Shown: positions 5,483 through 51,285 of the stretch, piece by piece | How the letters are laid out: each line of letters begins with the position of its first letter | Position numbering within the stretch: position 1 is the stretch's first letter | Origin: Micavibrio sp. UBA5572 | GTDB lineage: Bacteria > Pseudomonadota > Alphaproteobacteria > Micavibrionales > Micavibrionaceae | Assembly (NCBI GenBank): GCA_002425415.1 | Contig: DIMG01000033.1 | Location: 5,637-69,636 of the forward strand | Length of the DNA: 64,000 nucleotides | Direction: 5' to 3' | Program-made: the position numbers and the translations under genes | Notes under the pieces: generated by a model | What the model was told of the DNA's origin: nothing | Databases searched by the model: none | Seen by the model: only the letters and a program-made list of their open reading frames with translations

Positions 5483-6100
5483 ATGTTGATCTTGAAAAAC
5501 GCTTTTTTTGTTATGATGGGATTGTTCTTTTCTGCCGGAATTGCTCTAGCAGAAGAATCCATGCCACATGCTGAGGAAGCAGCTCATCAAGGCGGCGGAT
5601 TGCCCCAGTTCGATCCTACCAGTTGGCCCAGCCAGATTTTCTGGCTGGTCGTATTCTTTGTCATTCTTTATACGATTTTTTCCAAATCCGTTTTGCCAAG
5701 TATCGGCACGACTCTTGGAAACAGGAAAGCTCATATCGATCGGCATATTGCCGAAGCCGAAACTCTTTCTAAAGAAGCGGAAATTATCGATTCTGAATTG
5801 AAAGCAGCTCTGCGTGAAGCCGGTCAGAGTGCGTCTTCCGAAATCCAGAGTGCAGAATCCGATGCCAAGACTCGTCTGGCGGATGCAATAGCTGGGTTTA
5901 GAGATCGCTATGAAAAAGAAATCGGTGACGCTGAAAATCGCATTCAAAAAGCAACCGATATTGCGCTTCAGGACATGAATTCTCTGGTTGCAACTTTGGC
6001 AACACAGATGGCTGAAAAAGTTGCGGGCATTTCTGCCGATGCAACCCAAGCCGAAACTGTTGTACGCTCTTTAAGCAATAAAGCCAGCAAAGCAGCATAA
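5483..6100 (+). CDS. atpF2: F0F1 ATP synthase subunit b'
   Basis: One N-terminal TM segment followed by a long charged helix. It occupies the first of two b-type positions, as in alphaproteobacteria. Confidence 0.85.
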   Translation: MLILKNAFFVMMGLFFSAGIALAEESMPHAEEAAHQGGGLPQFDPTSWPSQIFWLVVFFVILYTIFSKSVLPSIGTTLGNRKAHIDRHIAEAETLSKEAEIIDSELKAALREAGQSASSEIQSAESDAKTRLADAIAGFRDRYEKEIGDAENRIQKATDIALQDMNSLVATLATQMAEKVAGISADATQAETVVRSLSNKASKAA

Positions 6101-45680: not shown

Positions 45681-46019
45681 ATGACATTTGTAGTGACCGA
45701 CATTTGCATTAAATGTAAATACACCGACTGCGTTGAAGTCTGCCCTGTTGACTGTTTTTACGAAGGTGAAAACACATTGGTCATCCATCCTGATGAATGC
45801 ATAGATTGCGGTGTCTGCGAACCGGAATGTCCGATTGAAGCAATTGTTCCGGATTCTCACCCATCAGGCCAAGAATATCTTGAAATGAACACTAAATATG
45901 CATCTATTTGGCCCAATATCACCCGCAAAAAAAGCCCGATGCCGGAAGCCGAAAAGTTCAAATCACTAAAAAATAAATTTAAAGAGTGGTTTTCTCCGAA
46001 TCCTGGCGAAGGTGATTAG
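45681..46019 (+). CDS. fdxA: ferredoxin FdxA (7Fe type)
   Basis: [18 protein letters not shown] and [12 protein letters not shown] cluster motifs. Confidence 0.95.
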
Positions 46020-46080: not shown

Positions 46081-46108
46081 TTGAAAAATACCAAAAATCT
46101 GCTATACT
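46081..46108 (+). promoter_or_regulatory. putative sigma70-type promoter upstream of carD
   Basis: TTGAAA-16 nt-TATACT followed by CCCC. It predicts a leader of about 175 nt containing two hairpins (AGGAGTG/CACTCCT and ATGGCAAT/ATTGCCAT). Confidence 0.4.
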
Positions 46109-46290
46109 CCCCGACATGCTTAAGCGATGAGCCGGATACAGGAGTGGGCAACTAGTCTTTTAAACACTCCTTTATTCAGCGTCAATGGCAATTTTCATTG
46201 CCATATACCTAACATCGAGAGCGTGAAATAAGAGCAATCCGGCGAAGCTTGACACAGGGCGATGCCACCGAAAACTACACTTAAACCGAT

Positions 46291-47628
46291 ATGCAAGCAA
46301 AAGGGCGTAAAGGCATGAAAAAGAACGAAAAAGTCAAAAAAATTACTGCAAAAAAAACCACTTCGGTTGCGAAATCTGCTGCCAAGACTACTTCTTCTAA
46401 GTCTACCGCTAAAAAAACAACAAAAACAATTGCCAAACCAACTGCTAAAAAAGTAGCAACAAAAACCGCTGTTAAAGCTGTTAAAAAAGTAACACCTGCA
46501 AAAAAAGCCACAGCCAAAGTAAAACCACAGGCAAAGGCCACCCCTAAAAAAGTAGTTCCAACCAAAACAGCCGTCAAATCAACGGTTAAAACGGTTAAAA
46601 AGACAACGGTGAAAACAGCGCCTATCAAAGCTGCGCCTAAAAAAGCAACAATTACAAAGAAAGCAACAACGCCTGTGAAAATTTCAGCCAAAACGAAAAA
46701 AACAGCCGCGACGCCAGCAAAAGCCCCGATAAAAGCCACGGCCAAAACTCCAGTGAAAACAGCTGCCCCTAAAGTTACAGCCAAAACAAAAAAAACGTCC
46801 TCTGTTAAAACAACAGCGGTAAAAACAACAACAAAAGCGAAAGCTCCAGCCAAAATAACGGCAAAGTCGCCTATTATTGTAAAAACGCCACAAAATCAGA
46901 ATATGCCGTCTCTATCAACCGGCTCAACCAAAACGATTGTGACCATGGTGCCACAAAAACTGCCAACATCGATATCCACAACAAGTCTGGCATCGACAAA
47001 ACCGGCATACCGCCCCATTCAGGTCATCAACAAGCCTCTGGCTCCGTTGCAACCTGTCCGTCAAATGGCGCCAATCTCTAAGGAGGCAGAAAAAATCGAA
47101 TTTAATAAAGGCGACTACGTTTGCTACCCAGCCCACGGTGTCGGAGAAATCGAAGCAGTCGAAACTCAAACTATTGGTGGCATGGAAATCAAACTCTACG
47201 CCATCGCCTTTGAAAAAGACCGTATGCGTCTCAAAGTTCCAGTATCCAAGGCTCATGCCTCTGGCTTACGTCGCCTATCATCGAGCGGCCGCATGGAAGA
47301 CGCCTTGAAAACACTACAAGGCCGCGCCCATGTTCGCCGTGCCATGTGGTCGCGCCGAGCTCAAGAATATGAAACCAAGATCAACTCCGGGGATCCTGTT
47401 TCAATCGCCGAAGTTCTTCGTGACCTAAAGCGCAGCAACGACGACACAGAGCAATCCTATTCCGAGCGCCAGATTTACCAATCTGCTTTGGAACGGTTGG
47501 CTCGCGAAGTCGCCGCAGTCGAAAAAATCTCGGAAGAAGCCGCCGCAGAGCGTCTGGAAAACATGATTAAAGGCCGCAAAGCCCGCTCTTCTACTGAAAA
47601 AACAGAGAACAAAGAACAAGCGGCCTAA
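46291..47628 (+). CDS. carD: CarD/CdnL-family transcription regulator with long Lys/Ala/Thr-rich N-terminal extension
   Basis: The C-terminal 187 aa or so (from Met259 at 47065) reads FNKGDYVCYPAHGVGEIEAVE...MEIKLYAIAF...LKVPV, a CarD_CdnL_TRCF pattern. The N-terminal 258 aa or so is AKKTTxK-type low complexity. An alternative start is at 46315. Confidence 0.85.
   Translation: MQAKGRKGMKKNEKVKKITAKKTTSVAKSAAKTTSSKSTAKKTTKTIAKPTAKKVATKTAVKAVKKVTPAKKATAKVKPQAKATPKKVVPTKTAVKSTVKTVKKTTVKTAPIKAAPKKATITKKATTPVKISAKTKKTAATPAKAPIKATAKTPVKTAAPKVTAKTKKTSSVKTTAVKTTTKAKAPAKITAKSPIIVKTPQNQNMPSLSTGSTKTIVTMVPQKLPTSISTTSLASTKPAYRPIQVINKPLAPLQPVRQMAPISKEAEKIEFNKGDYVCYPAHGVGEIEAVETQTIGGMEIKLYAIAFEKDRMRLKVPVSKAHASGLRRLSSSGRMEDALKTLQGRAHVRRAMWSRRAQEYETKINSGDPVSIAEVLRDLKRSNDDTEQSYSERQIYQSALERLAREVAAVEKISEEAAAERLENMIKGRKARSSTEKTENKEQAA
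46315..46872 (+). repeat. degenerate coding low-complexity repeat (histone H1-like K/A/T/P tract)
   Basis: By eye, roughly one residue in three is Lys, with recurrent AKK / TAK / KTA units and no exact DNA repeat. Confidence 0.8.
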
Positions 47629-47654: not shown

Positions 47655-47687
47655 ACAGGCCATGATACATTCATGGCCTGTTTTTTA
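47655..47687 (+). terminator. rho-independent terminator after carD
   Basis: ACAGGCCATGA-TACAT-TCATGGCCTGT stem-loop followed by TTTTT. Confidence 0.7.
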
Positions 47688-47755: not shown

Positions 47756-47784
47756 TATACACGGAAAAAAACTTAGGCTATACT
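47756..47784 (+). promoter_or_regulatory. putative promoter of cspA
   Basis: TATACA-17 nt-TATACT followed by CCCCCC. It shares GCTATACTCCCC with the carD promoter candidate. Confidence 0.35.
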
Positions 47785-47919: not shown

Positions 47920-48126
47920 ATGGCTACCGGTACAGTAAAATGGTTCAACGGACAAAAAGGATTCGGATTTATCGTTCCTGATGATGGCGGAAAAGATATT
48001 TTCGTTCACATCTCTGCAGTTGAGAAATCAGGAATGAAAACACTCAATGAAGGACAAAGAGTTTCTTACGATCTTGAAACAAGCCGCGGAAAAACTGCCG
48101 CTGTAAATCTTCAAGACGCAGCATAA
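47920..48126 (+). CDS. cspA: cold-shock protein (CSD)
   Basis: [15 protein letters not shown] (RNP1) and DIFVHIS (RNP2). Confidence 0.95.
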
Positions 48127-48253: not shown

Positions 48254-48979
48254 TTAGTGAGAAACAAAATCCAACGCGCGTTGATAAACACCCATATCTG
48301 ACTTGCTAAAACGCCCTTGTTCTTGACCAGCAGCCAGTTTTTCGAGTGTAGGGTTGCCCGATGTCACAGCTTTTGCATTGGTCGCAAACGCAACATCCCC
48401 CTTCGCACAAGGTTCATCTCTGAAATAATTACAAACAGGGTTAATTTGAACCTCGGTATTCAAAGCCGTAATACTTTGCCCGTTATCAGCAAGAACATGT
48501 CTCGCCCCACTTGGTGATGGCTGTTCTATATAATCGTGTTGACCCATATCCGGACGACGAACGTCCCCTTGCCTAAATCTTCCATTAAATTGCGCAGAAG
48601 CTTCTTGAAAGCGATCATACTGACGACCCCCTTGATAACCGCCAACAACATACCCGCGATCCTGCGGATACTGCGCATAAGGATATTGTGAAGCACCCAC
48701 CGAATATCGATACCGATCTCCATACGCACCACCATCATACCCGCGATAACCGCCACCATATCCATAGATACCACGCAAAGCATCATATTCTTGATGCCGC
48801 GCAGCAGAAGTAAGGGGGCGGAACATATCATTAATCGTTCTACCAATCGCGTCACCAACCTGCCTATCCCAACCATCAAAGGCGTGGCGCCCAGCAAATC
48901 TATACCGAGCCTCAGCTTGCCTAACCGGTATAAGCATATGATCCCTCAATGGAGGCCGTCTACTAAAAAAATCTGACAT
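48254..48979 (-). CDS. hypothetical Gly/Tyr/Arg/Gln-rich low-complexity protein
   Basis: 241-aa ORF. The central tract is GIYGYGGGYRGYDGGAYGDRYRYSV...YPYAQYPQDRGYVVGGYQGGRQYDRF. No signal peptide. Confidence 0.55.
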   Translation of the reverse strand: MSDFFSRRPPLRDHMLIPVRQAEARYRFAGRHAFDGWDRQVGDAIGRTINDMFRPLTSAARHQEYDALRGIYGYGGGYRGYDGGAYGDRYRYSVGASQYPYAQYPQDRGYVVGGYQGGRQYDRFQEASAQFNGRFRQGDVRRPDMGQHDYIEQPSPSGARHVLADNGQSITALNTEVQINPVCNYFRDEPCAKGDVAFATNAKAVTSGNPTLEKLAAGQEQGRFSKSDMGVYQRALDFVSH

Positions 48980-49839: not shown

Positions 49840-51285
49840 ATGACCGATGCCACATTTGATTTTCTTGCTCTTCCAGACGCTCTGATTCAAAAAAGCAAAG
49901 ACTTAAAAACCGTCCCACTTCATTTTGTCAAAACAAACCAATTCGAAAAATGGGTCAGCAAACAAAACGACCCTCTCAAAAACCAGTTTGCCCATTCCAA
50001 TTGGACTGCCAAAGACAGTACTTTTATCCAGACCCTCTCGGCAGAGGGACATATTAATGCGATTTATATTGGATACGAAGGACAAATCGGAATTTATACC
50101 ATTTGTGCCGCGGCAGAAAAAATCCCGCATGGCCAATACGAAATTGAAAGAAACAACCTGAAAGACGAAGAACTGGAAAACGCCTGTATCGGTTGGTTGC
50201 TTTCCTGTTACCAATTCTCGCACTATAAGAAATTAACAACAAAAATTTCCGAATTGGTTTTGCCTTCCAAAATCAACATCAATCGTATTGAATCAACCGC
50301 ACGCGCATCCTATCTGGTCAGAAACCTGATTAACCTGCCACCAAATGCGCTCGGCCCCCGAACTTTGGCCGAAACCGTTGCAACCGTTGCCAAAAATTTT
50401 GATGCCATGTTTCGTATTGTCGAAGATAAAGAACTCCTCGAAGAAAACCTCCCCTTGATCTACGCAGTCGGGGACGGCAGCGAACGCCGCCCATGCTTGG
50501 CGGAAATGGCTTGGGGCAATCCGAAACATCCAAAAGTCACATTGGTCGGAAAAGGCGTGTGCTTTGACACCGGTGGATATGACATTAAACCCAGCGCAGG
50601 CATGCTCTTAATGAAAAAAGACATGGGTGGCGCAGCCATGGCTTTAGCCACCGCACTCATGATTATGAGTGCAAAACTCCCCGTCTATCTTCGTCTGCTT
50701 ATTCCTTGCGTAGAAAATTCTGTTTCTGGCCGCGCCTATCGCCCAAGCGATATTCTAACATCCCGTTCGGGAACAACAGTCGAAATTGGAAACACCGATG
50801 CCGAAGGACGCCTCGTTCTGGCCGATTGCCTGACCATGGCCTGCGAAGAATCCCCTGACCTGCTGATTGACTTCGCAACTCTGACCGGAGCAGCCCATTA
50901 CGCGGTTGGCTACGACATGGGCGTTGTCTATTCCAATGATGAAAAACTGGGACATGATATTCAAAAACTGTCCATGCAACTGAATGACCCACTCTGGAAT
51001 CTTCCCCTGTGGAAAGATTATAAAAAAGACATTCTCTCACCCATTGCAGACATCAATAATGCAGGAAGTGGCAACCCCGCAGGTTCAATCACCGCAGCAC
51101 TCTTTCTCCAGCATTTTGTAACACCGGAAACAACGTGGGTTCACATTGACGAACGCGCTTGGCAAAACACCGCGCAACCAGGAAAATCACAAGGTGGAAA
51201 AGAAATGGGTATAAGAACTATCACAGCCCTGATCGAACAAAAATTTGCAAAAGCAAAACCGAAGAAAAAAGCCGTCAAGAAATAG
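49840..51285 (+). CDS. M17 leucyl aminopeptidase family protein
   Basis: NTDAEGRLVLAD signature, then VGKGVCFDTGGYDIKP and MKKDMGGAA. Confidence 0.9.
   Translation: MTDATFDFLALPDALIQKSKDLKTVPLHFVKTNQFEKWVSKQNDPLKNQFAHSNWTAKDSTFIQTLSAEGHINAIYIGYEGQIGIYTICAAAEKIPHGQYEIERNNLKDEELENACIGWLLSCYQFSHYKKLTTKISELVLPSKININRIESTARASYLVRNLINLPPNALGPRTLAETVATVAKNFDAMFRIVEDKELLEENLPLIYAVGDGSERRPCLAEMAWGNPKHPKVTLVGKGVCFDTGGYDIKPSAGMLLMKKDMGGAAMALATALMIMSAKLPVYLRLLIPCVENSVSGRAYRPSDILTSRSGTTVEIGNTDAEGRLVLADCLTMACEESPDLLIDFATLTGAAHYAVGYDMGVVYSNDEKLGHDIQKLSMQLNDPLWNLPLWKDYKKDILSPIADINNAGSGNPAGSITAALFLQHFVTPETTWVHIDERAWQNTAQPGKSQGGKEMGIRTITALIEQKFAKAKPKKKAVKK

Follow-up and report, generated by a model that had tools for sequence, protein, structure and literature searches.

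CarD/CdnL proteins are global transcription factors that are essential in several bacteria and have been described as binding RNA polymerase (RNAP) only, with no DNA-binding domain of their own. Myxobacterial CarD is considered the sole exception, and fusions of a CarD-type module to an HMGA-like or histone-H1-like C-terminal domain have been described as confined to myxobacteria (PMC2919716, PMC8156234). CarD of Myxococcus xanthus remains functional when H1, or the disordered C-terminal region of H1, is substituted for its basic domain, and therefore a basic disordered domain is sufficient there (PMC8156234, PMC2919716). In Streptomyces, DdbA (SCO2075) carries an N-terminal H1-like domain that consists of S/T-A/T-A-K-K repeats, varies in length among species, and binds and condenses DNA in vitro; its fusion partner is a DksA-like domain that binds RNAP (PMC3643593). 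Here, we analyzed a 64,000-nt stretch of DNA (the window; positions 5,637 to 69,636 of contig DIMG01000033.1, assembly GCA_002425415.1) from Micavibrio sp. UBA5572, in which a cdnL gene is fused to a coding sequence for a Lys-rich N-terminal extension. We estimate a probability of about 60% that the product is a housekeeping CdnL of 437 amino acid residues, starting from the ATG at 46315, with a polycationic disordered N-terminal DNA tether.

The C-terminal 187 residues of the window protein are full-length homologues of the stand-alone CdnL/CarD proteins (M. xanthus CdnL, 2LWJ; Caulobacter CdnL; R. sphaeroides CarD; and M. tuberculosis CarD, 4KBM) and contain the RNAP-interacting domain (RID), the CarD_C domain, and the Trp of the WSRR motif. 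The Ala-Ala C-terminus matches that of Caulobacter CdnL, and the fdxA-linked position of the gene is common to the short form of M. aeruginosavorus. Whereas stand-alone CdnLs consist of about 160–200 residues with no added DNA-binding domain, the window protein, with 437–445 residues, has an N-terminal extension of about 250 residues with a net charge of about +55.

Like myxobacterial CarD, the window protein combines a CarD-family RNAP-binding module with a basic domain predicted to be intrinsically disordered. However, the basic domain of myxobacterial CarD, which is HMGA-like in M. xanthus and S. aurantiaca and H1-like in Anaeromyxobacter, is C-terminal, whereas the window tract is N-terminal. 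Myxobacterial CarD has AT-hooks (RGRP) or an H1-like domain after an acidic region, whereas neither AT-hooks nor an acidic region was found in the window protein. CarG, the partner of myxobacterial CarD, is not known outside Cystobacterineae; the window organism is Micavibrio-like and alphaproteobacteria-like. In the window, it is the CdnL orthologue, in its conserved place next to fdxA, that carries the fusion, and apparently not a paralogue. The first-pass annotation of this DNA regarded the architecture as an independent, inverted version of that of myxobacterial CarD; the analogy is reasonable, but the fusion is not a one-off, because it occurs in more than 100 clusters of one clade and similar tails occur in sister lineages.

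Myxobacterial CarD was also the precedent named at that stage, whereas a closer functional one, Streptomyces DdbA (PMC3643593), was missed. Among the functional analogues, DdbA, with an N-terminal Lys-rich domain and a C-terminal RNAP-binding modulator, comes closest to the window protein in domain order. The two are analogous only: the RNAP module of DdbA is DksA-like and acts in the secondary channel, whereas CarD/CdnL acts at the beta lobe, the sequences are unrelated and come from different phyla, and no DksA domain with its zinc finger was detected in the window protein by Pfam. The window tract also resembles the C-terminal domain of H1, Hc1/Hc2, AlgP, and the tails of HupB/MDP1 and HupS in being Lys-rich, Ala/Pro-containing, disordered by prediction, and of low complexity, with a few TPKK, APKK, and TAKK units, but this resemblance does not amount to membership. 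The window architecture is widespread within one clade, and no description of an N-terminally extended CdnL, or of CdnL together with Micavibrio, was found in the open-access papers and bioRxiv preprints searched. Given the precedents CarD and DdbA, it extends a known theme and is not a new principle.

The extended reading frame and its CdnL module

In the open reading frame (ORF) listing of the window, a single frame was open from 46291 to 47628 on the forward strand, corresponding to 445 residues. Residues are numbered on this ORF by default, and subtraction of 8 gives the numbering of the 437-residue product. The features of the gene are as follows.

46300–46305, forward strand: Shine-Dalgarno (SD)-like AAAGGG, 9 nt 5′ of the ATG at 46315
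46315–47628, forward strand: most likely coding sequence of the long-form CdnL, 437 residues from Met9 (the longest ORF, of 445 residues, starts at 46291)
46315–46866, forward strand, residues 9–192: polycationic disordered tract of 184 residues (composition, AlphaFold2 (AF2), and the ratio of nonsynonymous to synonymous substitution rates (dN/dS))
46870–46902, forward strand, residues 194–204: linker motif 1, P-I-I-V-K-x-P-x-N-Q-N (PIIVKTPQNQN in the window)
Residues 201–258: S/T/P/Q-rich linker (composition)
46903–46998, forward strand, residues 205–236: variable S/T/P/Q-rich spacer (composition and alignment)
46999–47073, forward strand, residues 237–261: linker motif 2, [KR]-P-x-Y-R-P-I-Q-V-I-N-K-P-L-A-P-x-Q-P-V-R-Q-M-A-P, containing Met259
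47101–47277, forward strand, residues 271–329: CarD/TRCF RID, a Tudor-like beta domain (Pfam PF02559, E 4.6e-14)
47302–47556, forward strand, residues 338–422: CarD C-terminal helical domain, CarD_C (Pfam PF21095, E 1.5e-23)
47557–47625, forward strand, residues 423–445: C-terminal tail ending in ...KEQAA, with the Ala-Ala terminus at 47620–47625

The C-terminal 187 residues constitute a complete CarD/CdnL module with the RID, the helical domain, and the conserved Trp, and the coordinates and Pfam domains agreed with the fusion of CarD/CdnL to a Lys-rich N-terminal extension in a 445-residue ORF that the first-pass annotation described. The RID matched PF02559 with 52.7 bits against a cut-off of 23. 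In a search of PDB sequences, the module was aligned end to end with 2lwj (E 5e-20), 4kbm, 4ilu, and 4xlr, and the extension was covered by no PDB entry. The Trp (47344–47346), located in an MWSRR motif, was invariant in 78 family sequences and in register with that of M. xanthus CdnL (2lwj), mycobacterial CarD (4kbm and 4ilu), and Thermus CarD (4xlr). In the AF2 model built with an alignment of these 78 sequences, the CdnL module consisted of a beta domain and, after it, five helices, at a predicted local distance difference test (pLDDT) score of 70–89; the strands were placed at residues 268–308 (437-residue numbering), within the RID.

Ala was the last residue in 77 of the 78 family members, 39 of which ended in Ala-Ala, and CdnL variants with a C-terminal tail likewise finished with ...KKAA. 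Experiments on CdnL of Caulobacter, and of no other organism, have shown its C-terminal Ala-Ala to be a ClpXP degron needed for clearance in starvation (PMC11034885). By analogy, the long-form CdnL may retain a ClpXP-type degron through its free Ala-Ala end.

The first-pass annotation placed the start codon at 46291, but the second ATG, at 46315 (Met9), is most likely the true start. The N-terminal pattern M-K/A-x-N/K-x-K is common to all subclades and aligns with Met9, and a purine-rich AAGG, AAAGGG, or GAGG sequence was found 9–12 nt 5′ of the Met9 equivalent in all 18 long-form genes. Nothing comparable was present in the sequence upstream of the ATG at 46291. The eight additional codons from 46291 were confined to the closest subclade, where their nucleotides, including the third positions, were invariant; this invariance appears to fit a ribosome-binding region better than a coding sequence. 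Protein P0001, which is 100% identical, has 437 residues, and the majority of gene callers choose this length.

Translation and distribution of the extension

The identical protein has been recorded with different lengths: 187 residues, starting from Met259, in NCBI records MBE2191573.1 and MCB9984831.1, 291 residues from an internal GTG start in NCBI record HRK97223.1, and 437 or 445 residues in the gene calls of JGI, ENA, and Logan. The 187-residue call, made by the NCBI Prokaryotic Genome Annotation Pipeline (PGAP), and the 291-residue record would suit a reading in which only a short CdnL of 187 residues is made from Met259 and the upstream frame is an untranslated A-rich leader. Met259 is also conserved, and the Met-Ala of motif 2 to which it belongs lines up with the initial Met-Ala of short-form CdnLs. 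The frame, however, stays open for another 774 nt 5′ of this codon (ATG, 47065–47067). None of 20,000 mononucleotide shuffles of these 774 nt was free of stop codons, and the remaining two forward frames contained 12 and 13 stops across the same interval; therefore, the extended frame is not due to chance.

Comparison with relatives gave the same picture. The frame was unbroken in 17 species-level relatives and in more than 100 metagenomic clusters (90% identity) from independent assemblies, many indels notwithstanding. Among the matches listed, the best 117 of 120 clusters at 90% identity had the same two CarD domains in proteins of 256–490 residues, and the N-terminus was Lys-rich in every homologue sequence inspected. 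Nei-Gojobori dN/dS values for close pairs were 0.13–0.23 for the Lys-rich tract, 0.00–0.13 for the linker, and 0.00–0.07 for the CarD module, the value for the tract being approximate owing to imperfect alignment of low-complexity sequence. The tract is thus under purifying selection, though less constrained than the CarD fold. In the 18 long-form genes, the amino acids of motif 2 were kept while synonymous sites differed freely, and no SD-like sequence preceded the internal ATG (Met259), as the first-pass annotation had observed for the window. In the window, the promoter scan detected no promoter-like site inside the ORF. Because of the frame conservation, the dN/dS values below 0.25, the motif conservation, and the lack of an internal SD or promoter, production of the short form only is very unlikely. 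These comparisons indicate that the extension is translated and that, as the first-pass annotation had argued, it is the long form that the cell produces. The 187- and 291-residue NCBI calls accordingly conceal an N-terminal extension, and their correction is warranted.

An assembly or sequencing artefact, in which a frameshift or chimera fused a separate H1-like gene to cdnL, has nothing in its favor but low-complexity A-rich sequence with A7–A8 runs. It is refuted to near certainty by the occurrence of the same architecture in 17 species-level genomes from independent projects; a stop or frameshift separating the two halves was found in no long-form relative. In addition, seven members of the identical cluster came from NCBI, JGI, ENA, and Logan. 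Programmed frameshifting on slippery poly-A was likewise rejected: A-runs did not exceed 8 nt (A7–A8), and AAA accounted for 88% of the Lys codons within the tract, compared with a window background of 80%. An antisense ORF at 46281–46853 on the reverse strand (190 residues, F/V/A/L-rich) is the mirror of the Lys tract, with AAA read as TTT, and was dismissed as a low-complexity artefact.

The relatives surveyed were the best 80 related loci among GTDB species representatives, 17 of which (L001–L017) carried the long form. The related genomes are metagenome-assembled genomes (MAGs) labeled Micavibrio, Pseudobdellovibrionaceae, Alphaproteobacteria, or Rhodospirillaceae, because NCBI taxonomy places Micavibrio under Bdellovibrionota/Pseudobdellovibrionaceae. 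Genome-based classifications place Micavibrio within Alphaproteobacteria. When CarD modules were placed in a neighbor-joining tree, the 18 long forms were monophyletic and adjoined the M. aeruginosavorus group. The long form arose a single time, in one Micavibrio-related clade. M. aeruginosavorus itself has a short form of about 181 residues that starts with MANDNVDF and is encoded 3′ of fdxA. The linkage to fdxA that the first-pass annotation expected holds in this lineage, with fdxA directly upstream of cdnL; a strict Cys motif of FdxA preceded cdnL in 30 of 72 loci. The distance from fdxA to the CarD anchor was about 620–690 nt in short forms and about 1150–1670 nt in long forms. This spacing is consistent with a net gain of coding sequence between the leader and the former start codon.

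Lys-rich tails were also found outside this clade. L020/P0119 had an N-terminal Asn/Lys-rich tail of about 90 residues (93 in L020), L055 had an N-terminal Lys-rich tail of 127 residues, P0118/P0120 had a C-terminal K/A/P-rich tail of 80–95 residues, and P0117 possibly represents a further separate case. The nearest non-tailed relatives of L020/P0119, P0118/P0120, and P0117 by CarD-module identity were short forms, and the CarD module of L055 was roughly equidistant (about 76%) from all others. The tails of L020, L055, P0117, and P0118/P0120 lacked the linker motifs of the main clade. Lys-rich CdnL tails were gained independently, at either terminus, at least three further times in sister Micavibrio-like lineages. 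No second CdnL was found in the long-form assemblies among the best 80 loci, the MAGs being incomplete, and the long form is probably the sole CdnL of these genomes.

The Lys-rich tract, the linker, and a possible DNA tether

The 184-residue tract was composed of 30% K, 22% T, 19% A, 10% V, and 8% P, with one acidic residue and no Arg or aromatic residue, and had a net charge of about +55; for residues 1–200, the corresponding values were 29.5%, 21%, 18.5%, 9.5%, and 7.5%, with a net charge of +59. TAKK occurred three times and TPKK and APKK once each. No secondary structure was predicted by AF2 before about residue 268 (437-residue numbering), where pLDDT was mostly below 55, and the mean pLDDT of the whole model was 57. 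A recent tandem-repeat expansion as the origin of the tract was rejected, as just two-copy repeats of 9–17 nt were detected, which makes the tract degenerate.

Tract composition was compared across 55 homologues with a delimitable tract. The K content was 25–33% in 53 of these and 19% in P0017 and P0033, whose called N-termini take in about 30 non-Lys-rich residues. The tracts contained 0–5 Arg and 0–9 acidic residues and had a mean charge density of +0.27 per residue, and the fractions of A, T, V, P, and S differed widely. Among the long forms, tract length varied more than three-fold, from 72 to 237 residues. Lys content and charge are thus steady while the sequence is variable, and therefore selection acts on charge and composition and not on sequence. 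Screening of the 64-kb window and of 620 kb from related loci revealed no other ORF with a comparable Lys tract; therefore, the tail is specific to CdnL and does not reflect a genome-wide compositional habit.

As a separate observation, PepA (M17 leucyl aminopeptidase, 49840–51285) ends in a short basic tail, ...KFAKAKPKKKAVKK, which is below the length used for the Lys-tract screen.

The first-pass annotation called the N-terminal region a histone-H1-like domain. This likeness held for composition and not for homology. Residues 1–258, 1–200, and 191–270 had no match to Linker_histone, Hc1, HC2, or any Pfam/NCBIfam family at E ≤ 10, and the tract had no match among PDB sequences at E ≤ 10. A search of 5.8 billion proteins gave no match for the tract at E ≤ 1e-3, the composition correction having removed even its own orthologues. 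The resemblance is thus one of composition only, homology to H1, Hc1/Hc2, or another family being undetectable. Compared with linker histone H1, the window protein has no globular winged-helix domain, and its tract is rich in Thr and Val. The proposed preference for AT-rich DNA had no basis, as the protein has no AT-hooks and the tract has no Arg.

Starting from the features observed here, namely the ORF and its domains, the translation of the extension as seen by comparison, its predicted disorder, and its phylogenetic distribution, we propose that a polycationic tract of about 185 residues and a linker of about 65 residues were added in front of the housekeeping CdnL of this lineage. Judging from domain conservation, the RID would bind the RNAP beta subunit, and the helical domain and its Trp would stabilize the upstream edge of the transcription bubble and the open complex at sigma-A promoters. 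The Lys-rich tract would most likely bind DNA electrostatically and without sequence specificity, because it has a charge of about +0.27 per residue, no Arg, few acidic residues, and no aromatic residues. With such a tether, CdnL would stay associated with the nucleoid or with promoter-flanking DNA, which would make it locally more concentrated at RNAP–promoter complexes and prolong its dwell time there, and the linker motifs would probably dock a partner, RNAP, or DNA.

A disordered, acid-free tract with K as its only basic residue, whose charge density is conserved and whose sequence is not, would also suit the binding of another polyanion (for example, nascent RNA, ribosomal RNA, or polyphosphate) or the formation of CdnL/RNAP condensates (transcription foci). 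H1-like AlgP has been linked to polyphosphate granules (PMC9239181), MDP1 condenses RNA (PMC13639343), and rRNA promoters are sites of CdnL action (PMC5324124, PMC8156234). However, both characterized fusions of a basic tail to an RNAP factor, CarD and DdbA, act through DNA, and no sequence feature specific to RNA or polyphosphate was found in the tract. We consider this explanation rather unlikely.

The linker contained two near-invariant motifs. In the 78 sequences, K190, N194, and N196 of motif 1 and P230, Y232, R233, P234, I235, Q236, V237, L242, P247, R249, M251, A252, and P253 of motif 2 (437-residue numbering) were at least 90% conserved. A phmmer search of residues 193–261 against 1.84 billion representatives returned this family only, apart from one spurious match, P0130, a eukaryote-type repeat protein that was rejected as a motif carrier. 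In the AF2 model, the motifs showed neither a fold nor intramolecular docking (pLDDT about 52–56). The two motifs probably serve as docking peptides that engage a partner, RNAP, or DNA.

This conservation raises another explanation, in which the motifs alone are functional and the extension binds no nucleic acid, serving as an entropic spacer, as a substrate for acetylation at Lys or phosphorylation at Ser/Thr, or as a modulator of proteolysis. The dN/dS values of the linker (0.016–0.018) were far below those of the tract (0.13–0.18) in the pairs L001/L008 and L015/L017, the tract length spread exceeds three-fold, and the window tract is unusually Thr-rich, all of which such an appendage would accommodate. 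On the other hand, K was held at about 28–30% and acidic, Arg, and aromatic residues were excluded across members, which a mere spacer would not need, and Lys-rich tails lacking these motifs arose convergently in other lineages. This explanation is improbable.

For the DNA tether, several points weigh on the opposite side. The case for DNA binding is one of charge and analogy, for a tract with no detectable homology to DNA-binding proteins, and polylysine tracts have other ligands as well, including RNA, polyphosphate, and acidic lipids. The C-terminal domains of H1 contain roughly 40% K; with about 30%, the window tract is less Lys-dense than the canonical domain, and it is much richer in Thr and Val. 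All members are known from uncultured MAGs, as genes alone, and the status as sole CdnL goes back just to the missing second match among the best 80 loci from incomplete genomes. Finally, Met259 and its neighbors are at least 90% conserved, within a motif that is conserved as a whole. The first-pass annotation had allowed for two isoforms; a minor short isoform initiated at the conserved Met259 is conceivable but unsupported, as an SD was absent in front of this codon in all 18 genes and no promoter-like site was detected inside the window ORF.

If the tether is real, DNA tethering of CdnL is selectable outside myxobacteria, and the independent tail gains would make a global RNAP-bound activator with a non-specific DNA tether a recurrently selected design beyond that group. 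The natural variants in length and charge would then allow the design of the tether to be studied, and the two new conserved short motifs would be candidate contacts of the transcription machinery. A bolder proposal, which we put forward tentatively and regard as doubtful, is that the only, essential CdnL of the clade has become nucleoid-tethered and that PIxVKxPxNQN and RPxYRPIQVINKPLAPxQPVRQMAP form a new RNAP/DNA-docking element that places the arm on promoter-flanking DNA.

Transcription unit and neighboring genes

The elements flanking the long cdnL gene are as follows.

45681–46019, directly upstream of cdnL: fdxA, 7Fe-type ferredoxin (Fer4 and DUF3470)
46081–46108, forward strand: promoter-like site TTGAAA-16 nt (TG)-TATACT, followed by a CCCC discriminator (10 of 12 matches in the consensus scan)
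46114–46299, forward strand: structured 5′ leader of about 175 nt with two hairpins, AGGAGUG/CACUCCU and AUGGCAAU/AUUGCCAU (alignment and consensus fold)
47655–47686, forward strand: intrinsic-terminator-like hairpin, ACAGGCCATGA, loop TACAT, TCATGGCCTGT, and TTTTTT (read from the sequence)
47920–48126, downstream of cdnL: cold-shock protein gene

The promoter-like site, whose function is presumed, was almost base-for-base invariant in the five closest relatives. The leader was also nearly invariant in these relatives, exceeding the conservation of the Lys-rich coding tract. An alignment of six loci had a mean column identity of 81% with long invariant blocks, a consensus fold was predicted, and the minimum free energy was −54 kcal/mol (z = −2.3). 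The leader was confined to the closest subclade and matched no Rfam family at gathering or permissive thresholds. It may be regulatory. Directly 3′ of the cdnL stop, the terminator-like hairpin has a perfect 11-bp stem, a 5-nt loop, and a T6 run; it was not listed by the forward-strand scan. Because of its own promoter-like site, leader, and terminator-like hairpin, the long cdnL looks monocistronic, with its own, possibly regulated leader.

The sequence GCTATACTCCCC, comprising a −10-like hexamer and a C-rich discriminator, precedes both cdnL (46097–46112) and the cold-shock gene (47756–47784). An ORF at 48254–48979 on the reverse strand encodes 241 residues rich in Tyr, Gly, Gln, and Arg, with runs such as YGYGGGYRGYDGGAYGDRYRY; it matched no Pfam family, and its product may be secreted or simply of low complexity. 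The surroundings are those of an ordinary chromosome, with genes for SMC, photolyase, LD-carboxypeptidase, PepA, and HflX.

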